From the IMG/VR virus record IMGVR_UViG_2537561946_000006: a stretch of 64,000 nt of DNA; one strand, given 5' to 3'. The stretch's first letter is position 1, and every line of letters starts with the position of its first letter. Below are positions 2,731 through 48,225 of this stretch, piece after piece. Under the pieces are notes generated by a model. That model saw only the letters and a program-made list of their open reading frames with translations, made no database searches and was not told the DNA's origin. A program made the position numbers and the translations under genes. This stretch comes from a virus (Duplodnaviria; Heunggongvirae; Uroviricota; Caudoviricetes).

Positions 2731-3600
<870 letters not shown>

Positions 3601-7556: not shown

Positions 7557-7651
7557 TGTGTTTTAACCTCATTACAGATTTCAGGGTGAACGAATCCCTG
7601 CCATTGCTGGCATTTTTAATCCGTTGGTATGGCGTTAATATAGCTGGCGGG

Positions 7652-7840
7652 TTATCCAGCCGGTGTTTCGTTATTCAGGTACAGCGATACTTTTTTTACC
7701 GGTAGGCATTCACCAGAAATTTTTTGCTCGTCTCTTGCCTGGAGGCTGGATTCTTTACTGGCATAAATTCCGGTAATCACATTTTGTGGCTCACCCGTTA
7801 TAAGAAAAACGGTCATCACCAGTGCAAACGCTGAAGTCAC
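7652..7840 (-). CDS. small hydrophobic protein downstream of dicB (YdfD position)
   Basis: 62 aa, overlaps dicB stop; position only. Confidence 0.35.
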   Translation of the reverse strand: MTSAFALVMTVFLITGEPQNVITGIYASKESSLQARDEQKISGECLPVKKVSLYLNNETPAG

Positions 7841-8025
7841 TGCTGTTCTCCGATAATACCAAGTTCAAGAAGGGCAATTCTGGAAAGTATGGAATTATCA
7901 TTGAGAAGATAAGGTTCATATTTTCTCATCTTAATGGCATCTTCAGTAAACTCCCGGTTACTGAGCAGAACACCAATATCAAAACAACCTTCAGACGTAT
8001 TAACGTTTGGTAATAACGTTTCCAT
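7837..8025 (-). CDS. dicB: DicB-like cell division inhibitor
   Basis: METLLPNVNTSEGCFDIGV... aligns with Qin DicB MKTLLPNVNTSEGCFEIGV... (recalled), 62 aa. Confidence 0.85.
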   Translation of the reverse strand: METLLPNVNTSEGCFDIGVLLSNREFTEDAIKMRKYEPYLLNDNSILSRIALLELGIIGEQQ

Positions 8026-8199
8026 TATCGCGTCCTCAACAATGAATTTTGTGATGCAGTGCCTGGTGCCTCCAGGTGACGTTAACCAGTTAACAATTAA
8101 CGCCGGATACAGAGAATCCACCCATAACACTGTTTTTGGTTTTAACTGTTCCGCGTGCGCATAGCCGCATTCACCGCATCACAAAATTCACTTTAAAAA

Positions 8200-8252
8200 G
8201 GGCGGCAGAGCAGCCACGGAGTAAAACTGATACCGCCAAACGTCACCAGAAA
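8200..8252 (-). ncRNA. dicF: DicF small RNA
   Basis: reverse complement TTTCTGGTGACGTTTGGCGGTATCAGTTTTACTCCGTGGCTGCTCTGCCGCCC, 52/53 to recalled DicF, followed by T-tract. Confidence 0.85.
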
Positions 8253-8514
8253 ATTGATAGCAGAGGGCGTTGTAGCGAAGTTGTCACTTAAGCGTATGGT
8301 CAACCTGACAACCCGGTGTCCTCAATGGGGGAAGGAATAACCCCGCCATACTTACCGCCGCGCCATTTCGCGGATTGCCACAACCAGAAGCGCACGGTCG
8401 AAGAAATTTAACGACAAGACTTATATGCAAAGGGATCTCGCCGTGCGCTTTCGTGTTATGCCCTGACTTTTCAGGGTAAATTAACCTGTGGAAACCTGTT
8501 TTTACTGGCGCTAA

Positions 8515-8667
8515 TCAGTTAGCGTTTCTGGCTAACCAGCGATGCGCGGCAGCTTCGGTTTTAAACGTTTTACTTTTGGTATACGTCATCGCGGTAAACG
8601 TGCCGTCCTGATTGGGAAACACGCCACATACCAGAGATTCGTTGTTGCCAAGCTCGATAGTATCCAT
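8515..8667 (-). CDS. ydfA: YdfA-like small protein (DUF1391)
   Basis: MDTIELGNNESLVCGVFPNQDGTFTAMTYTKSKTFKTE... matches recalled YdfA; listed ORF has an upstream start. Confidence 0.6.
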   Translation of the reverse strand: MDTIELGNNESLVCGVFPNQDGTFTAMTYTKSKTFKTEAAAHRWLARNAN

Positions 8668-8859
8668 GCTGACCTCATTTCCCCTTAACGCTGGGGTAGC
8701 GGAACTAAAAACCTGCTGCGCTGTTATACAAAGTGTTCCCGCCGTCATGTTCATACGCCTCGGGCTGGCTACTTAATCCCTGACCACTGCCGGGTAACTC
8801 TAGGTATTGCCCTGTATTGTGTGGGACGGGATGGGTTGGTATGGGAAAACTATAGGAAA

Positions 8860-8910
8860 TGCCTAATTGCCTGTCAATAGGCTGCGCCTAATGATTTGGG
8901 TGCGACCTAA
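8860..8910. promoter_or_regulatory. operator-like repeats (TTAGGC / GCCTAA half-sites) at the dicB-operon promoter
   Basis: AATGCCTAATTGCC, CAATAGGCTGCGCCTAATG, GACCTAATAGG. Confidence 0.4.
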
Positions 8911-8985
8911 TAGGTGATGGTTTGTGGGAGAGGTAGTAGGAGTTAACTAACGGGAACTAGGAATTTCCCGTCGGACCATATAAGT

Positions 8986-9462
8986 TTAAGTTCCTGTCTT
9001 GGTGATGTTCTGGCTTTTCCGTTTTGATTCTTGATTTTTCAGATAGTTAGCTACCTTCATTTCCATTGCGGCAATGTAGGCGCGAACGTCATGATCAACC
9101 CAACTAGGCTCCGTAGCATTTCCAGATAAGAGGAAAGCCACAATTGCTCTTTTTTCATCAGAGGCGGCTTGATAAAGGCTGTTTATGTCTAAAAGTTCAC
9201 TTTTTGTATCTGAAGTGGATGGGGTTGGTATGGGGTATTCGTTAAGCCCCCAATGCTCTGGACCAACCACATCAGAAAAGAAACGCCATAGTTCTGGAAG
9301 TTTGTCTTTACTTATCGAACCTTTCTTAATCCAGTCATGGATTGATGGTGGTTGGACTTTGAAATGACGTGCGATTTCCGCCTTTGATTTGACGGCTCCT
9401 GATGCAATTTTTTTGTTAATGGCCTGCTCTATCGCTCGGCCTAAGTCTTTACCACTAAGCAT
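8986..9462 (-). CDS. racR: RacR/DicA-type prophage repressor (HTH XRE)
   Basis: 158 aa, MLSGKDLGRAIEQAINKK..., HTH ...ARHFKVQPPSIHDWIKKG; divergent from cro-like gene. Confidence 0.85.
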   Translation of the reverse strand: MLSGKDLGRAIEQAINKKIASGAVKSKAEIARHFKVQPPSIHDWIKKGSISKDKLPELWRFFSDVVGPEHWGLNEYPIPTPSTSDTKSELLDINSLYQAASDEKRAIVAFLLSGNATEPSWVDHDVRAYIAAMEMKVANYLKNQESKRKSQNITKTGT

Positions 9463-14409: not shown

Positions 14410-14969
14410 GCGTTCTCCCCATGAGCATTAAAGGATGCTTAAGATATGCTATGTCACTGATAAAAAATTTGTTGTGTGTGTTTAGTTATTTTATCTACCT
14501 CCATTATGATTTAAGACTGATATATGTTATCAGCAAAGGTACATCGTTATTATTTTACCTGTCAATACATTTGATATTGATTAGCGTTTACATCGCTTGC
14601 TTAGGAAATTGAAGGCAGGTAACTATCATGTCAATGAACTAACCCACAGTCTAACGTACTTCTTTCCCCAATCACCAACAACCAAATTCCTGTTATCACC
14701 ACTGGGATTTTGGCGCAACTTCATGGTGCAGAGGTAAATAGCATCAAGCAAAATCTCTTTTTCCGTTGTTGTCCTTATGGGACGTCTGTCTTTCTGACCG
14801 ATTTCATATTGGCGAGGTAATGGGAAGTTAAGTAGAATAGCTGCGGGTGCTTGAGGCTATCTGCCTCGGGCATGAACACCAACGGCAGATAGAGAAAAGC
14901 CCCAGTTAACATTACGCGTCCTGCAAGACGCTTAACATTAATCTGAGGCTCAATCTATGAACGGCAAAT

Positions 14970-16043
14970 CTAGGTTAGCCTCTTACGTGCCGAAAGGCAA
15001 GGAGATGTATGGGTCCACCACATATTGCAATTTTTATTCTCTTTTAAAATATATTCCACGGGCGTCATTAGTGCGAGCGCCTTGTGGGGTCTTTTGCTGT
15101 TATACAGCACCAGATATTCCGCCAGCTTCTGGTTAAATAGCGCCAGATCTTCAAAGAGTAAAATCTCATTAAATTCAATAAACTGCTCTCTTAACGTCCG
15201 GTTAAAACGTTCACAGATAGCGTTCATTTTTGGCGTGTAGGGATAGGTCCAGAGGTGTTTGATAGCGGCTTCCTGCAGCGTTTTGTCGAAGTTTCCCAGG
15301 AACTCTTTTCCGTTATCTGTGATTATCTGGCTGATACCGACCGGGAACAACCGGGCTGCGCGGCTGAAGAAGTGATTGACGATATCACTGTTGAGTGACG
15401 GCACAGCCAGCGCCAGCGCGTAATTGCTGCATTCGTCGATCATGGTGATGACATAGCGACGCAGTTCGCCCATTCTGAGCTCAATGGCGTCCATCCCAAT
15501 GAGCTCACCTGTCTTTACCGGGCGGTAGTGCTTTGGCCTGCGGGGTTTGGCAGACCGCTTTTTGACAAGCAGTGCCTTCCCCCGCGATCCCAGACGCACA
15601 GGTATCATCCGCATTTTATCATGTGCGGCAGCGATCATTCTGCCGATGGTGGAAACACTCGGACAGGCCAGATAGCGCTGTTCGCACCAGGGCTTCAGGC
15701 GAACAAAAATCTGCTCTTTACCGAGGTTCGGCAGCTCTGTCCTGAGGCGTCGAATCTCTTTCAGCACATCGGGATGCCAGTGTTTTTTTCGTCGCACCAG
15801 AGGTGCCTTACTGTGCGGGATTAGCCCCTCAGGTCCTTCCTTGTTCAGTAACTGACGCCACCAGTAAAGCGTGCGGCAGGACACGCCAAAGGCTTCAGAA
15901 GCTGCAGAAATACCGTGTTTATCCCAGAAGTGCAGAGCCTTCATTCTCATTGTTGCTATATCAGCCATCACTGAAAGCCTCAACGCATAATCGGCCGTTT
16001 GGTAGTACTTAGGATAGCCAACCATCAGATGCTGCATTTGCAT
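14970..16043 (-). mobile_element. IS transposase gene (DDE integrase-core type, IS481-like); element ends not resolved
   Basis: 357 aa with N-terminal HTH and DDE core ...DNGKEF...; interrupts the nin-region. Confidence 0.75.
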
Positions 16044-17776: not shown

Positions 17777-18136
17777 ATGCGTATAGAGTTTGTTTTGCCT
17801 TACCCGCCGACGGTGAACACCTACTGGCGACGTCGTGGCAGCACATATTTTGTATCAAAAGCCGGTGAGCGTTATCGCCGGGATGTGGCACTTATTGTTC
17901 GCCAGCAGCGGCTGAAATTAAACCTGTCCGGAAGGCTGGCGATAAAGATTATTGCCGAGCCACCGGATAAGCGCCGCCGTGACCTGGACAATATTCTGAA
18001 AGCGCCGCTGGATGCGCTGACGCATGCGGGGGTGCTAATGGACGATGAGCAGTTTGATGAAATCAATATTGTACGTGGTCAGCCAGTATCTGGTGGACGG
18101 CTGGGTGTGAAGATTTACAAAATTGAGAGTGAGTGA
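17777..18136 (+). CDS. rusA: RusA Holliday junction resolvase
   Basis: 119 aa, MRIEFVLPYPPTVNTYW...RRRDLDNILKAPLDAL. Confidence 0.9.
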   Translation: MRIEFVLPYPPTVNTYWRRRGSTYFVSKAGERYRRDVALIVRQQRLKLNLSGRLAIKIIAEPPDKRRRDLDNILKAPLDALTHAGVLMDDEQFDEINIVRGQPVSGGRLGVKIYKIESE

Positions 18137-18675
18137 GCGTAAATATGATATATCCGGAAATTACAGGCAAAAGCGGCGAACATTTACGCCTGAACACGCT
18201 GGAAGCAGTCTGGATCCAGGGGAAATTACGGATGTGGGGGCGGTGGTCGTATATCGGTGGGGGTAAATCCGGAAATATGTTTAACCGGTTACTGGTTTCG
18301 AAAAAGCTGACGAAAACAGCAGTTAATGAGGTTTTACGCAGCATGAAGAAATCCGGGCTGGAAAAACCGGAACTTGAGGCATTTTTTCGGGATATGACCA
18401 GAGGGAAGCAGAAGAGCTGGTTGTCACATTGTACAGACACAGAGGCGTTGATTATTGATCGCGTTATCAGTGAGGTGCTTGGGGAATATCCCGGGCTAAT
18501 CAATATTCTCCGGCAAAGGTACGAAGGACGGGGAATGAGTAAGAGAAAAATGGCAGAATGTTTAAATCGTACTCACCCGGAATGGTGTTTCAGCACATGT
18601 GAGAAACGTATTGCAGGTTGGTTAGCCGTGGCTGAACACATGCTTTATGTACCTATGCACGATTCATTTCGATAA
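18133..18675 (+). CDS. late-gene antiterminator Q-like protein
   Basis: 180 aa directly after rusA and before terminator plus late genes; positional. Confidence 0.6.
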   Translation: MSVNMIYPEITGKSGEHLRLNTLEAVWIQGKLRMWGRWSYIGGGKSGNMFNRLLVSKKLTKTAVNEVLRSMKKSGLEKPELEAFFRDMTRGKQKSWLSHCTDTEALIIDRVISEVLGEYPGLINILRQRYEGRGMSKRKMAECLNRTHPEWCFSTCEKRIAGWLAVAEHMLYVPMHDSFR

Positions 18676-18770
18676 AAAAAGCTTGCTTTTTTACGCAGAA
18701 ACAGCTTGAATTCCTGTAAGCTTCGCAAAGCTGTATCGCGAGGCGAAATGCAAGTTTTTTCGCACAAGGA

Positions 18771-18793
18771 AGCCACCGGAAGGTGGTTTTTTT
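18771..18793 (+). terminator. intrinsic terminator downstream of Q (tR'-like)
   Basis: CCACCGGAAGGTGG stem followed by TTTTTTT. Confidence 0.5.
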
Positions 18794-19264
18794 GTGTCCG
18801 TAATATACAGCAGCGCAATAAATTCGCTGGTGGTTATTAATACCGTTCTTTCAGGTTGCTGGCTTTTTCGACAAGAGTTATTGGTGTGTCACGTTAACCG
18901 GAAAAGGGAAAAAGACATGCTGAAACAGCAGGATATGACAGAAACCGCCAGAGTGGTGTTTAATGAATTAAGCGTTACCGACCCGGCGACAGTCGGGGAG
19001 ATTGCGCAGAATACTTACCTTTCACGCGAACGCTGCCAGTTAATACTGACCCAGCTGGTTATGGCGGGTCTGGCAGACTATCAGTTTGGTTGTTACAGAC
19101 GCCTTCAGTCCTGAAGGCTTTTTTATTTGTGGTAAATGGGCGGCTGGTGGGTGTAAGGGGCACCCACCAGCCATCTGCTCATGCGTTGGGTTCACAAGCA
19201 AACCTCAGGCCCACTGCTTTGCGCAAAAGCAGAATGAGCCTATCAGAGACAGGCTTAATGATCC

Positions 19265-20314
19265 ATGCTTAATACTGTAAAAATATCCAGTTGTGAGTTA
19301 ATCAACGCCGACTGCCTGGAATTTATGCGGTCGTTACCCGAAAATTCTGTTGACCTGATAGTCACGGACCCGCCGTACTTCAAAGTGAAACCCGAGGGCT
19401 GGGATAACCAGTGGGCGGGTGATGAAGATTACCTGAAGTGGCTGGACCAGTGTCTTGCGCAGTTCTGGCGGGTGCTGAAACCTGCCGGAAGTCTTTACCT
19501 GTTCTGTGGCCATCGTCTGGCATCTGACACCGAAATCATGATGCGTGAGCGGTTTAACGTGCTGAACCATATCATCTGGGCAAAGCCGTCCGGACGCTGG
19601 AACGGGTGCAACAAGGAAAGCCTGCGGGCGTATTTCCCCGCCACAGAGCGCATTCTGTTCGCAGAGCATTATCAGGGGCCGTATCGTCCGAAAGATGCCG
19701 GGTATGAGGCGAAGGGTAGGGCACTGAAACAGCATGTGATGGCCCCGCTGATTGCTTACTTTCGTGATGCGCGCGCTGTCCTGGGGATAACGGCAAAACA
19801 GATTGCAGATGCCACAGGAAAGAAAAACATGGTGTCGCACTGGTTCAGTGCCGGTCAGTGGCAGCTGCCGAACGAAAGCGATTATCTGAAATTACAGGCA
19901 CTGTTTGCCCGGGTGGCAGAAGAGAAGCATCAGCGGGGTGAACTGGAAAAGCCCCACCACCAGCTGGTGGATACGTATGCCTCTCTGAACCGACAGTATG
20001 CGGAGCTGCAGAGTGAATATAAGCATCTGCGGCGGTATTTTGGTGTGACGGCGCAGGTGCCGTACACGGATGTGTGGACACATAAACCGGTGCAGTTCTA
20101 TCCCGGGAAACATCCGTGCGAAAAACCGGCAGAAATGCTGCAGCAGATAATCAGCGCAAGCAGTCGTCCGGGTGACCTGGTTGCAGATTTTTTTATGGGC
20201 TCAGGTTCAACGGTAAAAGCGGCACTGGCGCTCGGGCGTCGTGCAATTGGCGTTGAGCTGGAGACTGAACGTTTTGAGCAGACAGTCAGGGAAGTTCAGG
20301 ATTTAATCGTTTGA
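19265..20314 (+). CDS. N6-adenine/N4-cytosine DNA methyltransferase (orphan, phage)
   Basis: IVTDPPYF motif; 349 aa; sits between Q and phage tRNAs. Confidence 0.85.
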   Translation: MLNTVKISSCELINADCLEFMRSLPENSVDLIVTDPPYFKVKPEGWDNQWAGDEDYLKWLDQCLAQFWRVLKPAGSLYLFCGHRLASDTEIMMRERFNVLNHIIWAKPSGRWNGCNKESLRAYFPATERILFAEHYQGPYRPKDAGYEAKGRALKQHVMAPLIAYFRDARAVLGITAKQIADATGKKNMVSHWFSAGQWQLPNESDYLKLQALFARVAEEKHQRGELEKPHHQLVDTYASLNRQYAELQSEYKHLRRYFGVTAQVPYTDVWTHKPVQFYPGKHPCEKPAEMLQQIISASSRPGDLVADFFMGSGSTVKAALALGRRAIGVELETERFEQTVREVQDLIV

Positions 20315-20363
20315 AACGGATGAGATTGCAGAATTAATTTCGCACCATTATTATTCTGGTCCC

Positions 20364-20439
20364 GGCCCTTTAGCTCAGTGGTGAGAGCGAGCGACTCATA
20401 ATCGCCAGGTCGCTGGTTCAAATCCAGCAAGGGCCACCA
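20364..20439 (+). tRNA. tRNA anticodon CAU (Ile2/Met-type, ileZ-like)
   Basis: GGCCCTTTAGCTCAGTGG...ACTCATAATCG...GGTTCAAATCC...AAGGGCCACCA, 76 nt. Confidence 0.9.
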
Positions 20440-20539
20440 TCACATACCGCCATTAGCTTATCAGGAAGAGCAGACGACACCATAACAGGGTTGTTGGTGC
20501 GGGGGCGGGTCCCCGATGGCGGTCCATTATCGGTATTCT

Positions 20540-20616
20540 GCGTTGTTAGCTCAGCCGGACAGAGCAATTGCCTTCTAAGCAATCGGTCAGTGGTTCGACT
20601 CCACTACAACGCGCCA
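20540..20616 (+). tRNA. tRNA-Arg anticodon UCU (argN/argO-like)
   Basis: GCGTTGTTAGCTCAGCC...CCTTCTAAGC...GGTTCGACTCC...ACAACGCGCCA, 77 nt. Confidence 0.9.
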
Positions 20617-20785
20617 CACTTATTTTCCAGGCTCGCTTCGGCGGGCCTTTTTTGTATCTGCGCCACGCCCGGTGCATATCAACCACAGAGCCTTTCGGGG
20701 GTGAGCTTACGGAGTGGTCAGTGTGACTTTCTCTGTGGGCAGATCGCTCCCGGGCGTTGGCTCACCCACCCAAAGGAACGTCACG

Positions 20786-21218
20786 ATGTTTGGTATTTTT
20801 GGTAAAAAAAGCCCGCAGAGCGGCAACGGAAATTAAAAAGTTTGAAAAACGCGATCTGGCACAGGTGGTGATTAACGCCGCATACCTGGTGGCCTGTGCA
20901 GATGGTGAATGTGAGGCTTCCTAGAAAGCGAAGATCGAACAGGTACTGCGTAATCAGCCTGCGCTGTCCGCGTTTACGTCAGAAATTAATGCGATTAGCG
21001 CAACCATTATCGGTCAGCTGGATACGAACTTTAAAATTGGTCGTCGTGCGGCGTTACGTGAGATCGAGGATGTGAAACACGATACGCGTGAAGCGGAAGA
21101 TGTGCTGGATGTGGCGGTGGCCATTGCGGAGGCAGACGGCGAAATTGAGCCGGAAGAGCGCAAGGTGCTGGAAGAGATTGCCGGTGTTCTGGGTCTTCGT
21201 CTGGAGAATCACCTGTGA
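20786..21218 (+). pseudogene. TerB-like domain gene disrupted by frameshift in an A7 run and an in-frame TAG
   Basis: ATG at 20786 stops at 20834; shifting one base in AAAAAAA at 20804-20810 gives MFGIFGKKARRAATEIKKFEKRDLAQVVINAAYLVACADGECEAS-TAG-KAKIEQ...AVAIAEADGEIEPEERKVLEEIAGVLGL. Confidence 0.5.
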
Positions 21219-21382
21219 CGGTAAAACTGCGCCTGACTGTGGCTGCACTCCTGCTGTTTCTGGTGGTGATGGTGGATTTCACCAGCAGAATCATGTCGGT
21301 GCTGGCGGATGGGGTGCTGGTCTGCGGCATTGTGGTATTGCTGTGGCCGGTGATAAAAAGAAACAGCCTGCATAATGCTTGA
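21215..21382 (+). CDS. small hydrophobic protein (GTG start), possible
   Basis: VTVKLRLTVAALLLFLVVMVDFTSRIMSVLADGVLVCGIVVLLWPVIKRNSLHNA, 55 aa. Confidence 0.3.
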   Translation: MTVKLRLTVAALLLFLVVMVDFTSRIMSVLADGVLVCGIVVLLWPVIKRNSLHNA

Positions 21383-21696
21383 TTTTTTTGTTTGCTGTTT
21401 ATTAAAAACACTTCTGCATGGTGAATCCCCCTGTGCGGAGGGGCAATCAGCGAGTAGGTATATGGGATAATCGCGGATTCAGGTGCTGGTACTGAATTCA
21501 CCGGGAGGCACCCGGCACCATGCTTTGCCACAAAAGTGTTATTTCTGTTTTTCTCAAACTATCATCGTTATCCCTTTATTTCCGGCTGCGCATGGCGCGG
21601 CCTTTTTTTTACGACCAGCCACTGGCAGATGGTCATCCTGTGATTTGATTCCGGTTCCGGCTTTTTAACTCTGTTCCTGTACACGGGAGAAATTCG

Positions 21697-23547
21697 ATGT
21701 CGATTAAACATTATGATGTTGTCAGGGCGGCGTCGCCGTCAGACCTTGCGGAAAAGCTGACACACAAACTGAAAGAGGGCTGGCAGCCGTTTGGTAGTCC
21801 GGTGGCCATAACCCCTTATACCCTGATGCAGGCGATTGCAGCAGAAGGTGATGTGGTGGTCAGTGGTGCAACTGAGCCGGATTGGTACTACGTCATCGTA
21901 CTGGCCGGGCAGTCCAATGCAATGGCTTACGGGGAAGGGCTTCCGCTTCCGGATTCATACGATGCTCCGGATCCGCGCATTAAACAGCTGGCGCGCCGCA
22001 GTACAGTTACGCCGGGTGGGGCTGCCTGCAGATATAACGATATTATTCCGGCCGACCACTGCCTGCATGATGTGCAGGATATGAGTACGCTGAATCATCC
22101 GAAGGCAGACCTGAGCAAAGGGCAGTACGGCTGTGTCGGCCAGGGCTTACATATTGCCAAAAAACTGCTTCCGTATATCCCGAATAACGCGGGGATCCTG
22201 CTGGTACCATGCTGTCGTGGTGGTTCTGCATTCACCCAGGGCGCTGAGGGGACATTCAGTGCGGACACGGGGGCCAGCCAGGATTCGGCACGCTGGGGTG
22301 TGGGTAAACCGTTATATCAGGACCTGATTGCGCGCACTAAAGCTGCATTACAGAAGAACCCGAAAAATGTGTTGCTGGCGGTGTGCTGGATGCAGGGAGA
22401 GTTTGACATGAGCGCCGCCACCCACGCACAGCAACCTGCGCTGTTTACAGCCATGCTGACACAGTTTCGTGCTGACCTCTCCGTGTTTAACGCGCAGTGC
22501 CATGGTGGCAGTGCTGCAGATGTGCCGTGGATTTGTGGTGACACGACGTATTACTGGAAAAATACATACGCTACCCAGTACGACACCGTGTACGGCGGGT
22601 ATAAAAACAGGGAGAGTGAGGGCGTTTATTTTGTGCCCTTCATGACAGACGGTAACGGCGTCAATACCGCCACTAACGCGCCGGCAGAAGATCCGGATAT
22701 TCCGGCATCAGGATATTACGGTGCGGCATCGAGAACGAATGGAAACCAGGTATCATCAAACCGCCCGACACATTTCAGTTCATGGGCGCGCAGGAGCATT
22801 ATTCCGGATCGTCTGGCAACCGCTATTCTGAACGCAGCCGGGCGCACCTCAGCCTTCATCAGTGGTAAGGCACCGGAAATCAAACCCTCGCCCGGCGGCA
22901 ACACGCCATCGGGTCCGTCTGCAGATACGTCCGTTCGCACAATCTCCCTGCTGCCGGCAGCCGGAGAGGCTGCTGCGCAGGGCTGGAGCATTAAGGATGG
23001 CGGAATTCAGTTGTCAGATGGTGTATTTAAGATCACCAAGCAGAGCAATAAAACCTGGTCCCTGACGCATCCGGTGGATGACGCAATTACCCTGCTGACA
23101 CAGGGCGGCAGACTGACCTGTAAGTTCCGCCTGTCAGGCGCACTGACCAACAATCAGTTCGGGCTGGGGATTTATCTGTATACGGATGCTCCCGTTCCTG
23201 ATGGTGTGGCGATGACGGGTACCGGTAATCCGTTCCTGATGTCGTACTTCACTCAGACCACTGACGGCAGAGTGAATCTGATGCATCACAGGAAAGCCGG
23301 AAACACGAAGCTGGGGGAGTTCGGCGATTACGGTAACGACTGGCAGACGCTGGAGCTGGTGTTCACCGCCGGCAGTGCCACGGTTACTCCGAAACTGAAT
23401 GGAGTGGCTGGCCCGGCATTCCAGGTTATAAAAGACAGTCTGACACTGGGACTGAATGCGCTGACGCTGACGGATGTTACAAAAAATGCAGCGTATGGCG
23501 TTGAGATAGAAAGTCTGGTGCTGGAGATAAATGCACCGGCAGCATAA
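21697..23547 (+). CDS. nanS-p: prophage sialate O-acetylesterase (NanS-p type, SGNH hydrolase)
   Basis: 616 aa; VLAGQSNAMAYGEG block; position between stx-slot and lysis genes. Confidence 0.8.
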   Translation: MSIKHYDVVRAASPSDLAEKLTHKLKEGWQPFGSPVAITPYTLMQAIAAEGDVVVSGATEPDWYYVIVLAGQSNAMAYGEGLPLPDSYDAPDPRIKQLARRSTVTPGGAACRYNDIIPADHCLHDVQDMSTLNHPKADLSKGQYGCVGQGLHIAKKLLPYIPNNAGILLVPCCRGGSAFTQGAEGTFSADTGASQDSARWGVGKPLYQDLIARTKAALQKNPKNVLLAVCWMQGEFDMSAATHAQQPALFTAMLTQFRADLSVFNAQCHGGSAADVPWICGDTTYYWKNTYATQYDTVYGGYKNRESEGVYFVPFMTDGNGVNTATNAPAEDPDIPASGYYGAASRTNGNQVSSNRPTHFSSWARRSIIPDRLATAILNAAGRTSAFISGKAPEIKPSPGGNTPSGPSADTSVRTISLLPAAGEAAAQGWSIKDGGIQLSDGVFKITKQSNKTWSLTHPVDDAITLLTQGGRLTCKFRLSGALTNNQFGLGIYLYTDAPVPDGVAMTGTGNPFLMSYFTQTTDGRVNLMHHRKAGNTKLGEFGDYGNDWQTLELVFTAGSATVTPKLNGVAGPAFQVIKDSLTLGLNALTLTDVTKNAAYGVEIESLVLEINAPAA

Positions 23548-23994
23548 TAAAAAAAGAGCCAGCGACTGACCTGAAAGAAGACGCTGGCTAAAAGGCCTTA
23601 TATGTTTGTAGAGACTTATTTTTCACAGACAGCAATGATGCCTGTCAATATATTATCAATATGCGGATTGTTTCAGTTACAGATGCTTTATTAAGGAAAA
23701 AAACAGCCAGCACTGACTTTCGGTGGAGAGGTGCTGGCTCAGAAGGATAGTTGGATTTCACATGATACTTATGCCTGGCGGTATATTTTCTGACAGACAG
23801 TGACGGGTGTTGTCAAGATATTGTGTCATTTATAACCTGAATCAGGGGAGGCCGGAATGTTATCTGGCATTTTTAGCAGAGCCTGAATGCCATAATCACG
23901 GCTCCCGGAGTTGGCCGTCAGTGGGTGACACTGGCGGTTTTTTTGTTTTTCTTTACTTTCATTTTCTGTCGGCGGTGACGGAGACATACATCAG

Positions 23995-24201
23995 ATGGAA
24001 AAAATCACAACGGGTGTGTCATACACCACGTCAGCGGTGGGGACGGGATACTGGTTACTGCAGCTGCTGGACAAAGTCTCTCCGTCCCAGTGGGTGGCAA
24101 TCGGTGTGCTGGGGAGTCTGCTGTTTGGCCTGCTGACGTATCTGACTAACCTTTATTTCAAGATTAAAGAAGATAAGCGTAAGGTGGCGCGGGGAGAGTA
24201 G
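23995..24201 (+). CDS. S: pinholin (phage 21 S-type)
   Basis: 68 aa, ...[36 protein letters not shown] closely matches recalled S21. Confidence 0.85.
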
Positions 24202-24456
24202 TCGATGAATAAACAATACGAACTGGTTGTAAAATGAATATTTCTAACTGAAAAAACGTTCCATGAGGTAAGAAAAGGTCACAGGCAATCAATAACAGGA
24301 CGTGATGAAAGACCCTTGCATTTGTGCGCTTTCTCTTTAGATAGCAGCAGATACTGAAAATCTGAGTTGTCGGGGAGTCAGGGATACAGCTGTGCAAGAG
24401 TTGGTCATTGTGATTCCATTGAAATCCTGTATGCCATGAAGGGCAGGATTTTATGG

Positions 24457-24771
24457 CTACCTGAGCTTTGGTGATAGTAAGTTGAAAATTCGCATTTTTT
24501 GCTGACATGCGTAACGAGAATCCCATAAGCAGGGAGGACTTAATTCTTCATTAACCCATGCGTTGATATTATGTTTCAGCCGTTGAAGCATCAGCGGTGT
24601 TAATGTTGTGGTAATAATATCCAGCGTTTTATGTGAGATCTTACCGTAAGGGTCTGCAAGAATGCTGCTTGTTGCTTCGTTATTATCTGCCATCAGAAGA
24701 AGTAACTCTGATTTAACGTTTTCTGTCATTAGTTGTAAAAATCTTCTGCGCAAACTTTCTTTACTGTTCAT
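24457..24771 (-). CDS. hypothetical protein in AT-rich insert between holin and endolysin
   Basis: 104 aa minus-strand ORF; region 24202-24888 is AT-rich and absent from the canonical S-R junction. Confidence 0.35.
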   Translation of the reverse strand: MNSKESLRRRFLQLMTENVKSELLLLMADNNEATSSILADPYGKISHKTLDIITTTLTPLMLQRLKHNINAWVNEELSPPCLWDSRYACQQKMRIFNLLSPKLR

Positions 24772-24888
24772 TTATATGGCTTCATTTGTTGTAATCTGCT
24801 GCGTCTCAAGGGATATGTTTATGAGAGCGACCATGAGTGTTGGATTATATACCTAACATATCAAGGGATTAGAAATCGATAAATCCCC

Positions 24889-25422
24889 ATGAACGAAAAA
24901 ATAAAATACGGCCTGTCGGCTGCCGTTCTGGCGCTGATTGGTGCAGGTGCTTCTGCGCCTGAAATCCTCGACCAGTTTCTGGATGAAAAGGAAGGTAACC
25001 ACACCACGGCATACCGTGATGGTGCGGGGATCTGGACCATCTGCCGTGGTGCCATTCTGGTGGATGGTAAGCCTGTTATTCCTGGCATGAAGCTGTCAAA
25101 GGAAAAATGCGACCGGGTTAATGCCATCGAACGTGACAAGGCTCTGGCATGGGTGGAGAAAAACATCCGGGTGCCGCTGACCGAACCCCAGAAAGCGGGG
25201 ATCGCGTCATTCTGTCCGTACAACATTGGCCCCGGTAAGTGCTTCCCGTCGACGTTTTATAAACGAATTAATGCAGGCGATCGAAAAGGTGCCTGTGAGG
25301 CGATTCGCTGGTGGATTAAGGACGGTGGCAGAGACTGCCGTATCCGTTCAAATAATTGCTACGGTCAGGTCTCACGGCGTGACCAGGAGAGCGCGCTGGC
25401 GTGCTGGGACATCGACAGATAG
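24889..25422 (+). CDS. R: signal-anchor-release endolysin (T4-type lysozyme fold)
   Basis: 177 aa, N-terminal hydrophobic SAR segment YGLSAAVLALIGAGASA, lysozyme block EGNHTTAYRDGAGIWTICRG. Confidence 0.9.
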   Translation: MNEKIKYGLSAAVLALIGAGASAPEILDQFLDEKEGNHTTAYRDGAGIWTICRGAILVDGKPVIPGMKLSKEKCDRVNAIERDKALAWVEKNIRVPLTEPQKAGIASFCPYNIGPGKCFPSTFYKRINAGDRKGACEAIRWWIKDGGRDCRIRSNNCYGQVSRRDQESALACWDIDR

Positions 25423-25757
25423 CAGAATATTTTCCTGAAAAATGACGTTGGCCAACGCGGGTGGATAACACGAAATCCTGAAAACTGGTAAAACCTAAGT
25501 GAATAAAAGTAAAAACCCCGTTTGTTGGCAGCAAGCGGGGTTTTGTGTTTTCTGACCTTGAGTAAGGCAAGGGAGAAATTATGGGTAGGGAGGTACTTTC
25601 CCTGTGAGGAAGTATAAAAGATTCTTTCTGAGGTTGTCCATTATGAAAGGCATTGAAGTGGAGACGCCAGCCAGTCTGGATTTAACAAGAGCGGCAGCTT
25701 TTGCCATTCGTATTGTGGCCATTGCTGTTCTGGTCTGGGCAATCCGTTGGTGGTGAT

Positions 25758-26225
25758 ATGAACCGTGTTCTGTGCGTGGTTATCATTGTCCTGCTGGTGG
25801 CCTGTGGTGCGCTTAGTCTGGGGCTGAATCATTACCGTGATCACGCCATCATCTACAAAGAGCAGCGCGATAAAAAAGCCAGTGAGCTGGAGCTGGCGAA
25901 CGCGACAATTACTGATATGCAGATACGCCAGCGTGATGTCGCTGCACTTGATGCCAGATACTCGAGGGAATTAGCCGATGCGAGAGCTGAAAATGAAACT
26001 CTGCGTGCTGATGTTGCCGCTGGTCGTAAGCGCCTGCGGATCAACGCCACCTGCTCCGGTACCGTGCGTGAAGCCACCGGCACCTCCGGCGTGGATAATG
26101 CAACCGGCCCCCGACTGGCAGACACCGCTGAACGGGATTATTTCATCCTCAGAGAACGGCTGATGGCAATGCAGAAGCAACTGGAAGGAGCACAGGAATA
26201 TATCCGTACCCAGTGTATACCGTGA
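25758..26225 (+). CDS. Rz: Rz i-spanin
   Basis: ATG at 25758, N-terminal TM, coiled-coil; Rz1 embedded in +1 frame. Confidence 0.8.
   Translation: MNRVLCVVIIVLLVACGALSLGLNHYRDHAIIYKEQRDKKASELELANATITDMQIRQRDVAALDARYSRELADARAENETLRADVAAGRKRLRINATCSGTVREATGTSGVDNATGPRLADTAERDYFILRERLMAMQKQLEGAQEYIRTQCIP
25993..26163 (+). CDS. Rz1: Rz1 o-spanin lipoprotein (embedded)
   Basis: MKLCVLMLPLVVSACGSTPPAP... lipobox VVSAC, Pro-rich. Confidence 0.7.
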   Translation: MKLCVLMLPLVVSACGSTPPAPVPCVKPPAPPAWIMQPAPDWQTPLNGIISSSENG

Positions 26226-26690
26226 TGTTTTGTTATGAAGGTGTTACTGGTAACGTTAAGGTAATTTAACAAAGAGTCAGTTCCGGACTTTATAGTGTGC
26301 TCAGTTCATGGCCAAAAACGATTTCTGTGATAAATATTTTGAATATTATTTACAGGTAAATGGAGTGGGGCACATGGATAGAAATATTACAATAGAGAAT
26401 GAAGTATATGCCCGTATTGTATGGGCAGAGAAGGCAAAAACACGGTAATTCCGTGTGTTGCCATGATACCTGATTGGCAGAATAGTTGTTTGGTTTTGAG
26501 TATATAGTCAGCGTTTTTTGTTCAGTAATTGCTCCCTCAAAAAATAATAAAATAAGGTGATTATTTTTGTTTATTATTTAGTTTTTTTTGTGTGTTGTTT
26601 TATTGTTTTTGCGTGGCTTGTTTTTTATTGTTATTTCATTAAGGGAAGGTAAATTCAGGATGGCAGTCTGTAGATAATCGGAGGTCACTT

Positions 26691-27005
26691 ATGCTACATG
26701 ATCACGTGGCAGAATGTCTGGAGAAAAAAGGACTGTACCGGAGAGCAGCTGAACGATGGGCAAAAGTGATGGTACAGCTAAGTGATGACCAGAAAAGAAA
26801 AGTGGCGGCACAGAAACGAGCAGAGTGTTTGCGTAAGGCGCGCCGGACTCCGGTTTCACCGGTGAACCTGACCGAAATAAAACAAGCGGTCAACAGACTA
26901 CATTCTGAGTTGGGAATGGGATTTGAAGAGCGGCGGGTATTCCGACGATATAAAGGGACAGGAGAACAGAATACGTCCGGAAACGCGCGGTCAAAAAAAT
27001 GCTAA
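26691..27005 (+). CDS. pch: PerC-family transcriptional activator (Pch-like)
   Basis: MLHDHVAECLEKKGLYRRAAERWAKVMVQLSDDQKR... matches recalled PerC/Pch; long AT-rich upstream region. Confidence 0.8.
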   Translation: MLHDHVAECLEKKGLYRRAAERWAKVMVQLSDDQKRKVAAQKRAECLRKARRTPVSPVNLTEIKQAVNRLHSELGMGFEERRVFRRYKGTGEQNTSGNARSKKC

Positions 27006-27086
27006 AAAATATCTGAGAGAGTTATTGCCTGTTACCATAAGAAAAAGCGACTTTAGTGGTCGCTTTTTGTGTCATATATAAGTCGT

Positions 27087-27311
27087 TTAAGTAAACCTGT
27101 CTGAACAGGTGCTCTGGTCGTGTTTGTCTTTGTTGGGTACAAATTGAGAATATTTTTCATTAATTAATCTTCTTCTGCAGGCTTCAATAACCCACGCTGA
27201 AAAATTACCTGAACCTTTCAGGTCAAGAGCGATGTTAATTTGTTCAATTATCTGGTTTGGAAATCGGATGTTGCGGGTTGTTGTTCTGCGGGTTCTGTTC
27301 TTTGATGACAT
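27087..27311 (-). CDS. hypothetical small DNA-binding-like protein
   Basis: 74 aa, basic N-terminus; unassigned. Confidence 0.3.
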   Translation of the reverse strand: MSSKNRTRRTTTRNIRFPNQIIEQINIALDLKGSGNFSAWVIEACRRRLINEKYSQFVPNKDKHDQSTCSDRFT

Positions 27312-27518
27312 AATGTTGCCCCGTATTCAGTGTTGCTGATTTGTATTATCTGAAGTTGCTTTTACGCTAATTTGATGCAGATCAATTAATACGATACCTG
27401 CGTAATAATTGATTATTTCTCGTGGTTTGATGGCGTACACACATGTCGTGATAAACCTCATGTAGATGATAATTATTATCATTTTCGTGGGTCCTTTCCG
27501 GCGATCCGACAGGTTACG

Positions 27519-27530
27519 GGGCGGCGACCT
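27519..27530. other. cosN cohesive-end site with cosB to the right
   Basis: GGGCGGCGACCTCGCGGGTTTTCGCTATTTATGAAAATTTTCCGG identical to the lambda left-end sequence. Confidence 0.85.
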
Positions 27531-27713
27531 CGCGGGTTTTCGCTATTTATGAAAATTTTCCGGGATCCATGTCCGGTTTCTCTTCAAGTTAACTATATGA
27601 AAAATATAAAAACAGGTCTTCTGTGAACCGGACATGAACAAAAAACAGACATGTAAACCGGACATGACCGGTTTTGTTGTGATTGTGAGGTGAGAGTTTT
27701 TGCGAGGTGAGGA

Positions 27714-28223
27714 GTGGCTACGCAGACTGAAGTTGCCAGGCATTTAAGTCTGACCGATCGCCAGCTTCGTAGATTGCAGAAATTGCCGGGTGCCCCGATA
27801 TCGAATAAGCGAGGGCAACTGGATCTGGATGCCTGGCGCGATTTTTACATATCGTATCTGAGGAGAAGTAAAAACGATGTGCCTGATGGCGATAGCGAAG
27901 ACGACTATGAGGAGAAATTGCTTATTGCCAGATGGGAACTGACAGCAGAACAGGCTGTTACACAGCAGTTAAAAAATGAGGTGTCAAAAGGAAAACTTAT
28001 TGACACCGGGTTCTGTATTTTTGCCCTCAGTAAGCTGGCAATGGCGTTATCCAGTACGCTTGATTCCATCCCTTTATCCATGCAGCGACAGTTTCCTGAT
28101 TTAACACCGCGCCATCTTGACCATCTGAAAACCCTTATTGCTAAGGGGGCAAATCAGTGTGCGCGGGCAGGGGATAAATTACCGGATTTACTCGATGAAT
28201 ATATCAGAGCTACAACTGAATAA
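27714..28223 (+). CDS. nu1: terminase small subunit
   Basis: GTG start after GAGGTGAGGA; C-terminal half aligns with lambda Nu1. Confidence 0.85.
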   Translation: MATQTEVARHLSLTDRQLRRLQKLPGAPISNKRGQLDLDAWRDFYISYLRRSKNDVPDGDSEDDYEEKLLIARWELTAEQAVTQQLKNEVSKGKLIDTGFCIFALSKLAMALSSTLDSIPLSMQRQFPDLTPRHLDHLKTLIAKGANQCARAGDKLPDLLDEYIRATTE

Positions 28224-30123
28224 TATGATGGCTGCCGTTTCGGTTGCGCTGCAGCCTCTGGTCAGGGTTGTACCAATGACGGCAGTTGAATGGGCTGATC
28301 AAAATTATTATCTGCCGAAAGAATCTTCATATGGTGAGGGAGAATGGAAAACGCTGCCATTCCAGATCGCCATTATGAACTGTATGGGTAACGACCAGGT
28401 TCGCACGGTTAACCTGATTAAATCTGCCCGTGTTGGCTATACAAAGATGTTGCTGGGGGTGGTCGGGTATTTTATTGAGCATAAATCCCGAAACAGTCTG
28501 CTTTTTCAGCCCACGGATTCTGCCGCTGAAGATTTTATGAAGTCTCACGTGGAGGCGACGATTCGGAACGTGCCATGCCTGAAAGACCTTTCCCCATGGC
28601 TGGGTCGTAAACATCGTGACAATACTCTCACGCTGAAACGCTTTTCATCGGGCGTCGGTTTCTGGTGCCTGGGCGGTGCAGCCGCCAAAAACTACCGTGA
28701 AAAATCCGTGGACGTGGTCTGCTATGACGAGCTTTCCTCGTTCGAGCCGGATGTCGAAAAAGAGGGCTCGCCAACCCTGCTGGGGGATAAGCGTATTGAG
28801 GGCTCTGTATGGCCAAAATCCATTCGCGGCTCGACGCCTAAAATCAAAGGTACCTGCCAGATCGAAAAAGCGGCCAACGAGTCGGCGCATTTCATGCGTT
28901 TCTATGTGCCCTGCCCGCACTGTGGGGAGGCGCAGTATCTGAAATTTGGCGATGAATCCACGCCTTTTGGCCTTAAATGGGAGAAGGACAGCCCCGAAAG
29001 CGTTTTCTACCTCTGTGAACATCATGGCTGCGTGATCCATCAGTCTGAGCTTGACCAGAGTAACGGGCGCTGGATCTGTGAAAACACGGGTATGTGGACC
29101 CGTGACGGCCTGATGTTTTTCAGCGCCCGGGGGGATGAAATTCCGCCGCCGCGCTCCATCACGTTCCATATCTGGACGGCGTACAGTCCGTTCACCACCT
29201 GGATACAGATAGTCTATGACTGGCTGGATGCACTGAAAGATCCCAACGGCCTGAAAACCTTTGTGAACACCACGCTGGGCGAGACCTGGGAAGAGGCCGT
29301 GGGCGAAAAACTCGATCACCAGGTACTGATGGATAAGGTGGTGCGTTACACGGCGGCGGTGCCTGCCCGGGTGGTTTATCTGACGGCGGGCATTGACTCG
29401 CAGCGAAACCGTTTTGAGATGTATGTCTGGGGATGGGCACCGGGAGAGGAAGCCTTTCTGGTGGATAAAATCATCATTATGGGCCGTCCCGATGAGGAAG
29501 AGACGCTGTTACGTGTGGATGCGGCGATCAACAAAAAATACTGCCATGCAGACGGAACCGAAATGACCATTTCCCGTGTCTGCTGGGACACCGGGGGGAT
29601 CGATGGTGAAATTGTCTATCAGAGGTCAAAAAAACACGGTGTTTTCCGGGTGCTGCCGGTAAAAGGCGCATCTGTCTATGGCAAGCCGGTGATCACCATG
29701 CCGAAAACCCGCAATCAGCGGGGCGTGTATCTGTGTGAAGTGGGGACGGACACCGCAAAAGAAATTCTCTATGCCCGTATGAAAGCCGATCCCACTCCTG
29801 CGGATGAAGCCACGTCGTATGCCATCCGTTTTCCTGATGATCCGGAGATTTTTTCGCAGACAGAGGCGCAGCAACTGGTCGCGGAAGAGCTTGTGGAGAA
29901 GTGGGAAAAAGGAAAGATGCGTCTGCTGTGGGATAACAAAAAGCGGCGTAACGAAGCGCTGGACTGCCTGGTGTATGCCTACGCGGCATTACGTGTGTCC
30001 GTGCAACGCTGGCAGCTTGATCTGGCTGTACTGGCAAAATCCCGGGAAGAAGAGACGACCCGGCCAACCCTGAAAGAACTGGCAGCGAAGCTGTCCGGAG
30101 GAGTGAATGGTTACAGTCGCTGA
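28195..30123 (+). CDS. A: terminase large subunit
   Basis: MNISELQ...TAVEWADQNYYLPKES... collinear with lambda gpA. Confidence 0.95.
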   Translation: MNISELQLNNMMAAVSVALQPLVRVVPMTAVEWADQNYYLPKESSYGEGEWKTLPFQIAIMNCMGNDQVRTVNLIKSARVGYTKMLLGVVGYFIEHKSRNSLLFQPTDSAAEDFMKSHVEATIRNVPCLKDLSPWLGRKHRDNTLTLKRFSSGVGFWCLGGAAAKNYREKSVDVVCYDELSSFEPDVEKEGSPTLLGDKRIEGSVWPKSIRGSTPKIKGTCQIEKAANESAHFMRFYVPCPHCGEAQYLKFGDESTPFGLKWEKDSPESVFYLCEHHGCVIHQSELDQSNGRWICENTGMWTRDGLMFFSARGDEIPPPRSITFHIWTAYSPFTTWIQIVYDWLDALKDPNGLKTFVNTTLGETWEEAVGEKLDHQVLMDKVVRYTAAVPARVVYLTAGIDSQRNRFEMYVWGWAPGEEAFLVDKIIIMGRPDEEETLLRVDAAINKKYCHADGTEMTISRVCWDTGGIDGEIVYQRSKKHGVFRVLPVKGASVYGKPVITMPKTRNQRGVYLCEVGTDTAKEILYARMKADPTPADEATSYAIRFPDDPEIFSQTEAQQLVAEELVEKWEKGKMRLLWDNKKRRNEALDCLVYAYAALRVSVQRWQLDLAVLAKSREEETTRPTLKELAAKLSGGVNGYSR

Positions 30124-43992: not shown

Positions 43993-46900
43993 ATGGGTAA
44001 AGGTGGCGGCAGGGCGCACACGCCGGTTGAGGTAAAGGACAATCTTAAGTCCACGCAGATGATGAGCGTGATTGATGCCATTGGTGAAGGGCCGATTGAA
44101 GGTCCGGTGAAGGGGCTGCAGAGTATCCTGGTGAACAAAACCCCGCTGACGGACACGGACGGCAATCCTGTGATACATGGTGTGACAGCGGTCTGGCGCG
44201 CCGGGGAGCAGGAGCAGACACCACCTGAAGGCTTTGAGTCCTCCGGGGCGGAAACCGCACTGGGCGTGGAAGTGACGAAGGTAAAGCCGGTGACGCGCAC
44301 CATTACGTCCGCGAACATTGACCGCCTGCGGGTCACCTTCGGGGTGCAGTCACTGTTGGAGACCACCTCAAAGGGCGACCGTAATCCCTCTTCTGTCCGA
44401 CTGCTGATTCAGTTGCAGCGTAACGGTAACTGGGTGACGGAAAAGGATGTCACCATTAACGGCAAGACCACCTCACAGTACCTGGCGTCGGTGATTCTGG
44501 AGAATCTGCCTGAGCGGCCCTTTAACATCCGGATGGTCCGGGAGACAGCGGACAACACCTCGGACCAGCTGCAGAATAAGACGCTCTGGTCGTCATACAC
44601 CGAAATCATCGATGTGAAACAGTGCTACCCGAACACGGCGATTGTGGGGTTGCAGGTGGATGCGGAGCAGTTTGGCGGTCAGCAGATGACGGTGAACTAC
44701 CATATCCGCGGTCGCATCATCCAGGTACCGTCAAACTATGACCCGGAAAAACGCACGTACAGCGGCATCTGGGACGGCAGCCTGAAACCGGCATACAGCA
44801 ACAACCCGGCCTGGTGCCTGTGGGACATGCTGACTCACCCGCGCTACGGCATGGGAAAACGTCTGGGGGCGGCAGACGTGGACAAATGGGCGCTGTATGC
44901 CATTGCGCAGTACTGCGACCAGACGGTCCCGGATGGTTTCGGGGGCACAGAGCCGCGGATGACCTTTAATGCGTACCTGTCACAACAGCGTAAGGCGTGG
45001 GACGTTCTCAGTGATTTCTGCTCGGCGATGCGCTGTATGCCGGTATGGAACGGCCAGACGCTGACGTTCGTTCAGGACCGCCCGTCGGATGTGGTGTGGC
45101 CGTACACCAACTGCGATGTGGTGGTGGATGATAACGGCGTGGGGTTTCGCTACAGCTTCAGCGCCCTGAAGGACCGCCACACGGCGGTGGAGGTGAATTA
45201 CACCGACCCGCAGAACGGCTGGCAGACCTCCACGGAACTGGTGGAAGACCCGGAAGCCATACTGCGCTACGGGCGCAACCTGCTGAAGATGGATGCGTTC
45301 GGCTGCACCAGTCGCGGTCAGGCCCACCGTGCCGGGCTGTGGGTGATAAAGACCGGACTGCTGGAAACGCAGACGGTGGATTTCACGCTCGGGTCACAGG
45401 GGCTGCGTCACACACCCGGTGACATTATTGAAATCTGTGATAACGACTATGCCGGGACCATGACCGGCGGACGTATCCTGTCCATCGATGCCGCCCGCCG
45501 CACCCTGACACTGGACCGTGAGGTGACCCTGCCGGAGACAGGTGCCGCCACGGTGAACCTGATTAACGGCAGCGGTAGGCCGGTGAGCGTGGCCATCACT
45601 GCACACCCCGCGCCGGACCGGATACAGGTCAGCACCCTGCCTGATGGTGTGGAGACATACGGTGTATGGGGGCTCTCCCTGCCGTCACTGCGTCGTCGCC
45701 TGTTCCGCTGTGTCTCCATCCGGGAAAACACGGACGGCACCTTTGCCATCACGGCGGTGCAGCACGTACCGGAAAAAGAAGCCATCGTGGATAACGGGGC
45801 CAGCTTTGAGCCGCAGTCAGGCACCCTGAACAGCGTTATTCCACCGGCAGTGCAGCACCTGACGGTGGAGGTGAGCGCGGCTGACGGTCAGTATCTGGCA
45901 CAGGCGAAATGGGACACGCCGCGGGTGGTGAAGGGTGTGCGCTTCAGTCTGCGCCTGACCAGTGGAAGCGGTGAAAACAGCCGCCTGGTGACCACCGCCA
46001 TCACCGCAGACACGGCGCACCGTTTCAGTGGCCTGCCGCTCGGGGAATACACCCTGACAGTCAGGGCAATTAACAGTTATGGCCAGCAGGGCGAACCGGC
46101 CACCACCACCTTCCGGATTAACGCGCCAGCAAAACCCGCCACCATTGAACTGACGCCGGGGTATTTTCAGATAACGGCGGTACCGGTGCTGGCGGTGTAT
46201 GACCCGACGGTACAGTTTGAATTCTGGTTCTCCGAAAAACGCATCACGAACACGGCACAGGTGGAAAAATCTGCCCGTTATCTGGGGACCGGCAGTCAGT
46301 GGACTGTCCAGGGGAGCCGGATTAAGCCGGGGACGGATTTCTGGTTTTATGTGCGCAGCGTCAATCTGGTGGGCAAGTCTGCGTTTGTGGAAGCCAGCGG
46401 GCAGGCCAGTAATGATGGTGAAGGGTATCTGGAAATTTTCCGGGAAAAAATAGGAAAACTGCATCTGGCTCAGAGGTTGTGGGAACTGATAGATAACAGC
46501 CAGCTTGCAGATGAGATGGCGGAGATGAAGACCAGCATCACGGAAACCCGCAATGAAATCACACAGACGGTCAACAAAACACTGGAGAACCAGAGCGCCA
46601 CCATACAGCAGATACAGCGCGTGCAGAAGGACACAAATGATGACCTGGCTGCACTCTACATGCTGAAAGTACAAAAAACCAAAAACGGCATTCCTTATGT
46701 GGCCGGGATTGGTGCAGGGATTGAGGATACTGATGGCCAGCCACTGAGCAACATACTGCTGCTGGCTGACCGTATCGCGATGATAAATCCGGAGAGCGGC
46801 AACAGCACTCCGTTATTTGTGGCGCAGGGGAATCAGCTGTTCATGAACGACGTGTTCCTGAAACGACTGTTTGCGGTGAGCATCACCTCGTCCGGCAATC

Positions 46901-47537: not shown

Positions 47538-48161
47538 ATGCGGCATTTATACGCAACGATATTATTGTTTACTACCCTGCTGGCAGGAATTGCCTTTCCT
47601 GCACAGGCTGAAAGCGGACACGGTGCATTTTCTGTGGGGTACACACAGGTGCACCCGGACGGTACGCCAGGGCTTTCCGGTACCGGCATCAGGGCCGGCG
47701 ATCTGAAAGGGATTAATGTGAAATACCGTTATGAGTTCACGGATCACCTGGGCGGCATTGTCGCGCTGAGTTATGCATCGGTGAAGAAAAGTGACACGAT
47801 GAAGACGGGTGAAAATACCTTCCATTATGAAAGCCTGCGCGGTCGTTATGTCAGTCTGATGGCCGGCCCTGTCTGGCAGCTCAGTGAGCGGGTCAGTCTC
47901 TATGGCATGGCCGGGATGGCGTACACCCGCTGGTCTGACAGTGTTCAGGATTACCGGCGTGATGAAGTGAAACCGGGGTATGTGAAGGAGACCACCACCG
48001 CCAGTGATGGTCATACTGCGCGTCATCTGTCGCCGGCCTGGAATGCCGGGATTCAGTTCAGTCCCGTAGAGACGGTGGTTATTGACCTTGCTTATGAAGG
48101 TTCCGGCAGTGGCGACTGGCGCACTGACGGTTTCATCGTGGGTGTCGGCTATAAATTCTGA
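47538..48161 (+). CDS. lom: Lom outer-membrane protein (Ail/Lom family)
   Basis: ATG at 47538; ...YEGSGSGDWRTDGFIVGVGYKF C-terminus identical to lambda Lom. Confidence 0.9.
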   Translation: MRHLYATILLFTTLLAGIAFPAQAESGHGAFSVGYTQVHPDGTPGLSGTGIRAGDLKGINVKYRYEFTDHLGGIVALSYASVKKSDTMKTGENTFHYESLRGRYVSLMAGPVWQLSERVSLYGMAGMAYTRWSDSVQDYRRDEVKPGYVKETTTASDGHTARHLSPAWNAGIQFSPVETVVIDLAYEGSGSGDWRTDGFIVGVGYKF

Positions 48162-48225
48162 TTAGCCAGGTAACACAGTGTTATGACAGCCCGCCGGTTC
48201 AGGCGGGCTTTTTTGTGGGGTGAAT

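Follow-up and report, generated by a model that had tools for sequence, protein, structure and literature searches.

A pchA allele in a probable accessory cassette between Rz and cos of a lambdoid prophage

The gene that follows the lysis cassette in the analysed DNA (IMG/VR record IMGVR_UViG_2537561946_000006, a stretch of 64,000 nucleotides hereafter called the window) is, as judged from its sequence, pchA, which has already been known and characterised for two decades, and it very probably represents a group 1 pch gene of the pchA allele, embedded in a self-contained accessory cassette (a 'moron') that fills the Rz-cos slot of a lambdoid prophage, within its late region. The gene occupies 26691-27005 on the + strand and encodes a protein of 104 amino acids. 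The product matched the Pfam family PerC (PF06069) with an E value of 3.8e-44 and a score of 149.3 bits against a cut-off of 22.6, and its residues 1-89 aligned to positions 1-89 of the 90-position profile. The five pch genes of strain Sakai and the perC gene of EPEC E2348/69, taken from annotated records, were used as the comparison set, and the window gene was found to be identical to Sakai pchA (ECs_1091, E. coli O157:H7) in all 104 amino acids and all 315 nucleotides. An earlier note on this DNA had described the product as a PerC/Pch-like regulator, which the PF06069 match and the 100% identity to PchA bear out, and had named a weak match with PerC/Pch across the N-terminal ~80 residues as the result that would speak against it; the alignment proved to be good, with 41 of 87 residues identical to EPEC PerC (47%; 70% positives, E 1e-27). 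Sixteen columns were invariant in an alignment of eight sequences, including PerC, PchA-E and the copy of strain A25. In UniRef the exact Pch sequence bears the name 'PchABC family transcriptional regulator', and it occurs in at least 1000 contigs. A single-sequence AlphaFold model predicted four helices with a pLDDT of only 51, and a search for sequence relatives in the PDB returned none for Pch and none for the product of the neighbouring DUF3950 gene described below.

The allele was assigned from nt 16, 172 and 183 of the 315-bp gene, which tell pchA, pchB and pchC apart (PMC5931665). The window DNA carries the pchA allele at all three positions, of which nt 16 separates it from pchB and all three separate it from pchC, and the protein is 99% identical to PchB and 98% identical to PchC. 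The features of group 1 are likewise present, namely a length of 104 residues with a basic C-terminal tail, an identity of at least 98% among members, and a placement in a lambdoid prophage, with the lysis genes on one side and the terminase genes on the other. Sakai PchB (ECs_2182, in Sp11) and PchC (ECs_2737, in Sp14) have the same length as the window Pch and the same position between Rz and the terminase genes. In contrast, Sakai PchD and PchE (groups 2 and 3), which belong to the same family, are about 90 amino acids long, are only 29% and 40% identical to the window Pch, and are sited in SpLE1 and Sp7 and not beside cos; they were reported to give little or no ler activation (PMC5931665). 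EPEC PerC shares the Pfam family and 47% identity over 87 residues with the window Pch, and both PerC and Pch activate LEE1 (PMC4332760); however, PerC comprises 89 amino acids and lacks the 15-residue basic C-terminal tail, and perC comes last in the perABC operon of the EAF plasmid pMAR2, whereas the window gene resides in a phage cassette.

The placement of pch between the lysis cassette and cos, as the earlier note had it, was confirmed on both sides. To the left lie the genes of a P21-type holin (23995-24201) and a lysozyme (24889-25422), followed by the Rz spanin gene as the last of the lysis cassette (25758-26225, + strand; Pfam Phage_lysis, E 1.2e-48), in which Rz1 is embedded (25978-26163). 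The Rz region is 83% identical to lambda 46027-46408, and PGAP annotates a 'lysis protein' at the Rz position of an identical locus. To the right lies a lambda-like cos region on the + strand (27164-27563), consisting of the cosQ side, cosN and the first bases of cosB, whose 400 nt are 88% identical to the joined lambda ends (48156-48502 plus 1-45). It contains the exact 12-nt cohesive-end sequence of cosN, GGGCGGCGACCT, at 27519-27530, and the two hallmarks of a lambda-type cos, the cohesive-end sequence and the flanking cosQ/cosN homology, are thus both found. The lambda cosB sites R3, I1, R2 and R1 are absent from this locus, as the lambda homology ends at 27563 (lambda nt 45). Just past that end begin three exact copies of ACCGGACATG, one inverted and two direct, at 27568-27577 (- strand), 27627-27636 (+ strand) and 27657-27666 (+ strand), between cosN and nu1; these repeats are probably candidate cosB binding sites for a terminase small subunit of non-lambda specificity. 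The small-subunit gene itself, of the Nu1 family, occupies 27714-28223 on the + strand (Pfam Phage_Nu1, E 1e-18, the family match being confined to residues 49-150) and is annotated by PGAP in an identical locus; the large-subunit gene follows and ends at 30123. The resulting order of Rz, pch, the DUF3950 gene, cos and nu1 is the same as in Sp11 and Sp14.

The limits of the pch cassette, at about 26226-27163, are set by the lambda homology, which stops at 26203 inside the Rz region and restarts at 27164. About 0.95 kb here stands in for 1.75 kb of lambda carrying bor, p78 and p79. The slot is therefore the one occupied by bor in lambda, and bor and pch are both accessory genes that benefit the lysogen, although the two are unrelated in sequence, and bor encodes an outer-membrane lipoprotein from the strand opposite to the late operon. 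Deposited phage genomes matched only 27177-27311 of the region, save for two short fragment records without annotation, derived from an O157:H7 host, which jointly span 26230-27311. Among 5426 complete E. coli genomes, the 465 bp upstream of pch are present in 673, and at least 80% of the cassette is likewise present in 673; the carriers hold a median of three copies, and 600 of 688 records reach an identity of at least 99%. The pch cassette thus behaves as one mobile accessory unit.

Downstream of pch, an A run, an 11-bp stem and a T run form a two-way intrinsic terminator hairpin (27042-27068) between pch and the DUF3950 gene, with folds of -14.7 kcal/mol on the + strand and -11.9 kcal/mol on the - strand (z -3.9 and -3.7). 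The DUF3950 gene, of the YlcI/YnfO family, occupies 27087-27311 on the - strand and encodes a small basic protein of 74 amino acids (pI 10.3), which matched the Pfam model over residues 21-49 (E 1.3e-17; 63.8 bits against a cut-off of 25) and phrog_949 (E 6e-31). The divergent small basic ORF of the earlier note is thus real and basic, but its orientation needs correction, since it is convergent with pch, tail to tail across the hairpin, and divergent relative to nu1 (27714, + strand) only. Codons 1-49 lie in lambda-homologous DNA, with homologous DNA in the lambda right end and in many Stx phages, and the 3′ end extends into DNA of the cassette; on this sequence evidence the gene is therefore assigned to the lambdoid backbone beside cos, outside the pch cassette.

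The AT- and T-tract-rich DNA that had been noted upstream of pch was recovered in the spacer between Rz and pch (26226-26690), of which 66% of the 465 bp are A+T. Within 26500-26650 the A+T content rises to 74%, T makes up 52% of the coding strand, and five T runs of 5-8 occur; the minimum GC content in a 150-nt span there is 0.24, one of the lowest values in the window, which averages 0.50. Three parts of the spacer could be distinguished by comparison among cassette copies. The left block (26226-26535, + strand) is nearly invariant among the pchA, pchB and A25 copies, with scattered single substitutions only; the following 115 bp, a T-tract-rich variable tract (26536-26650, + strand), are strongly diverged and are the most divergent part among the pchA, pchB, pchC and A25 copies; and a conserved ribosome-binding block (26651-26690, + strand) is kept in all copies and contains the Shine-Dalgarno sequence GGAGG at 26680-26684, six nt 5′ of the ATG. 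The most divergent copy compared, that of strain A25, has a spacer 88.5% identical to the one in the window, and the T-rich tract of pchB differs clearly from 26536-26650. This tract is probably promoter-proximal or leader DNA, and it is a likely target of H-NS and other regulators; the 'leader' of the earlier note may thus be transcribed, or may be promoter and silencing DNA instead. A scan for sigma-70 consensus promoters returned 2 sites against 4.3 in shuffled sequences, that is, fewer than in the shuffles, and nothing usable on a mapped pchA transcription start was found in the literature. A match to the rimP leader, obtained with Rfam at a permissive threshold over 24000-29000 (E 0.79), was dismissed as chance.

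The function of the identical protein is documented. Plasmid-expressed PchA raised the activity of ler::lacZ from 1577 to 9087 Miller units, about six-fold (PMC5931665), and Pch binds in AT-rich regions coated by H-NS, activating LEE1 through a lowered occupancy by H-NS and StpA (PMC4764244). Full ler expression and adherence are reported to need group 1 Pch (Iyoda and Watanabe 2004, as cited in PMC6265319 and PMC4456613). Transcription of pchA receives inputs from LrhA and, through Lrp and LeuO, from butyrate (PMC4456613, PMC4332760), as well as from NtrC/sigma-S (PMC10714755, PMC13012123). At the level of translation, reviews describe a stretch of the pchA coding region that pairs with the Shine-Dalgarno sequence and, under low oxygen, the small RNA DicF, which pairs with this coding stretch and frees the ribosome-binding site (PMC7769764, PMC7873438). 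The link to virulence regulation made in the earlier note is thus well founded, as the exact protein has been published as an activator of ler (PMC5931665, PMC4764244), and it is reinforced by the nle genes that the same prophage carries, nleB2 and nleF together with remnants of nleC and nleH.

The published pairing sites are present in the window because the gene there is identical to pchA. The in-gene stretch able to pair with the Shine-Dalgarno/start region and with the DicF 5′ end lies at 26769-26795 on the + strand, the sequence pairing with the Shine-Dalgarno/start region being AAGUGAUGACC (26780-26790) and that pairing with the DicF 5′ end being ACCAGAAA (26788-26795). In the minimum free energy fold, 26680-26692 paired with about 26778-26790, and the predicted pairing probability of the Shine-Dalgarno bases was 0.83-0.96, with a z score for the mRNA fold (-1.25) indistinguishable from shuffles. 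RNAduplex placed nt 1-24 of DicF best on 26769-26795, with -24.2 kcal/mol and a z score of -2.2, only about two standard deviations beyond shuffles. The full DicF-pch duplex (-48.9 kcal/mol) was rejected as independent evidence, as the shuffled mean was -42 (z -2.0) and -58 was reached elsewhere in the window. The predicted energies thus agree with the published DicF mechanism rather than prove it independently. A DicF gene was also found in the early region of the same prophage (8200-8251, - strand; Rfam RF00039, 75 bits against a gathering score of 48), so that the sRNA activator and its pch mRNA target are carried by one element.

From these elements a working model of the locus can be drawn. 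In the lysogen, pch would use its own promoter within the AT-rich upstream DNA, and its translation would be restrained by pairing of the ribosome-binding site to the coding-region stretch until DicF releases it under low oxygen. Pch would then bind AT-rich DNA pre-coated by H-NS/StpA and lift the silencing of the LEE1 promoter, and the Ler produced as a result would turn on the genes for type III secretion and those for phage-borne effectors. On induction, pch would also be transcribed within the late operon. A Q-type late antiterminator is encoded upstream of pch at 18133-18675 on the + strand (Pfam DUF1133, E 1e-110; Phage_antitermQ, E 1.4e-8), and Q, a sialate esterase, the holin, the lysozyme, Rz and pch all lie on this same strand; a search for + strand terminator-like sites in 26000-27270 returned none. 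Late transcripts have to cross pch to reach the head genes, and pch should therefore rise on induction. Under SOS induction of strain PA20, pchB rose ~3-fold and pchC ~8-fold, but pchA did not (PMC5931665). Late read-through of pch is accordingly suggested here by the gene order together with one RNA-seq study in another strain.

The arrangement of pchA in Sakai bears on this difference among the copies. In Sakai Sp4 (22131-29827 in Sp4 coordinates), the segment from pchA through Rz and the lysozyme to the holin has an inverted orientation and is flanked by IS629 and ISEc8, at a distance from Q. The 465 bp upstream of pchA and the terminator are nearly identical between Sp4 and the window, with 3 differences in the 1 kb that runs from the end of Rz past the terminator, but the Sp4 segment is cut off from Q, whereas the window keeps the native order of Q, S, R, Rz, pch and cos. 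The Sp4 inversion may explain why pchA is the sole group 1 copy that lacks SOS induction.

The window ends (1-3675 and 54198-64000) fall outside the region common to the closest prophages, and an integrase gene lies at 3798-4823 on the - strand, so that the prophage spans roughly 3.7-54.2 kb of the window; none of the genomes in the complete-genome collection matched the whole window. A match to the sok antisense RNA (14845-15011, + strand; Rfam, 102 bits) shows that the prophage includes a toxin-antitoxin locus of the hok/sok type, and in a related genome hokD is annotated beside an IS481-family transposase. The Q region (18123-21684) is non-collinear with the prophage of strain 14EC007, which is 99% identical elsewhere, and represents a mosaic replacement of the late-control module; it holds a DNA methylase gene (19265-20314), two tRNA genes (20364-20436 and 20540-20613) and a match to STnc100 (21387-21559). 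Behind the tail-fibre genes, at 49987-53144, the prophage carries type III effector genes: nleB2 (49987-50967) and nleF (52575-53144) look intact, nleC is truncated at 96 codons (51001-51291), and a 191-codon ORF (51685-52260) is left of a broken nleH.

Other readings of the locus were weighed against that of a group 1 pch gene in an accessory cassette. The DNA between Rz and pch could comprise a separate small gene, made up of a 46-codon ORF (26308-26448, + strand) and a hairpin, followed by an ordinary promoter and a short pch leader, a reading that we consider unlikely. The ORF does have a full-length match to phrog_2157, a family of unknown function, and is called as a 'hypothetical protein' in some GenBank records; a stable imperfect hairpin stands at its end (26433-26462; -16.7 kcal/mol, z -4.3 on the + strand), which on the - strand is followed by a T run and forms a terminator-like site; and conservation is much higher in the block at 26226-26535 than in the T-rich tract after it. 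However, the ORF is left without PGAP annotation in RefSeq genomes, a Pfam search with it returned no match, and of the three substitutions seen in it two are non-synonymous and one is synonymous, and for these reasons it is taken as probably non-coding. Moreover, conservation runs evenly across the borders of the ORF, which fits young, recently spread DNA and not purifying selection, and the phrog_2157 family may merely gather identical cassette copies. A related and decidedly unlikely idea is that the nearly invariant 310-bp block, with its ORF and hairpin, would contribute to the control of pch in a way not yet described, either by encoding a small protein or as an element of RNA processing or stability in transcripts that reach pch from the late promoter; if this were true, LEE activation would be directly coupled to induction of the prophage through a pchA in native orientation behind Q, in contrast to Sakai with its inverted pchA.

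It is also conceivable, though very unlikely in our estimate, that the intact pch contributes little, either as a redundant copy or in a host devoid of the LEE, being silenced by H-NS on its AT-rich DNA. Carriers have a median of three cassette copies, pchA reads are low and pchC is dominant in PA20 (PMC5931665), the effector genes nleC and nleH are broken, and no LEE is visible in the window, the regulator's target in the host being assumed. Nevertheless, the coding sequence, the ribosome-binding block and the terminator are intact and identical to those of the functional Sakai pchA, and the intact nleB2 and nleF in the same prophage point to an attaching-and-effacing host. Most improbable of all, Pch might mainly activate phage genes, LEE activation being a side effect. 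Its N-terminal 50 residues weakly matched the 'transcriptional activator' families phrog_1324, 2608 and 868 (E 6e-8 to 3e-4), and pch lies inside the late operon; yet the cassette is missing from most deposited lambdoid phage genomes and is thus not needed for phage growth, pch occupies the same accessory slot as lambda bor, and the sites reported to be bound by Pch are virulence loci of the host (PMC4764244, PMC4456613). The evidence argues for the reading given at the outset, a group 1 pch gene of the pchA allele in an accessory cassette of the Rz-cos slot.

The role of the identical gene has been settled since 2004, and the present finding serves annotation rather than new biology; the remaining interest lies in the promoter and leader structure and in the late-operon read-through that would link phage induction to LEE expression. 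Roughly one complete E. coli genome in eight carries a pchA-type gene. Where such a gene is found, the host is probably an attaching-and-effacing pathogen, and the prophage is both a regulatory element and an effector carrier; pch genes are the means by which prophages that lie outside the LEE island govern the master virulence switch in EHEC and its E. coli relatives.
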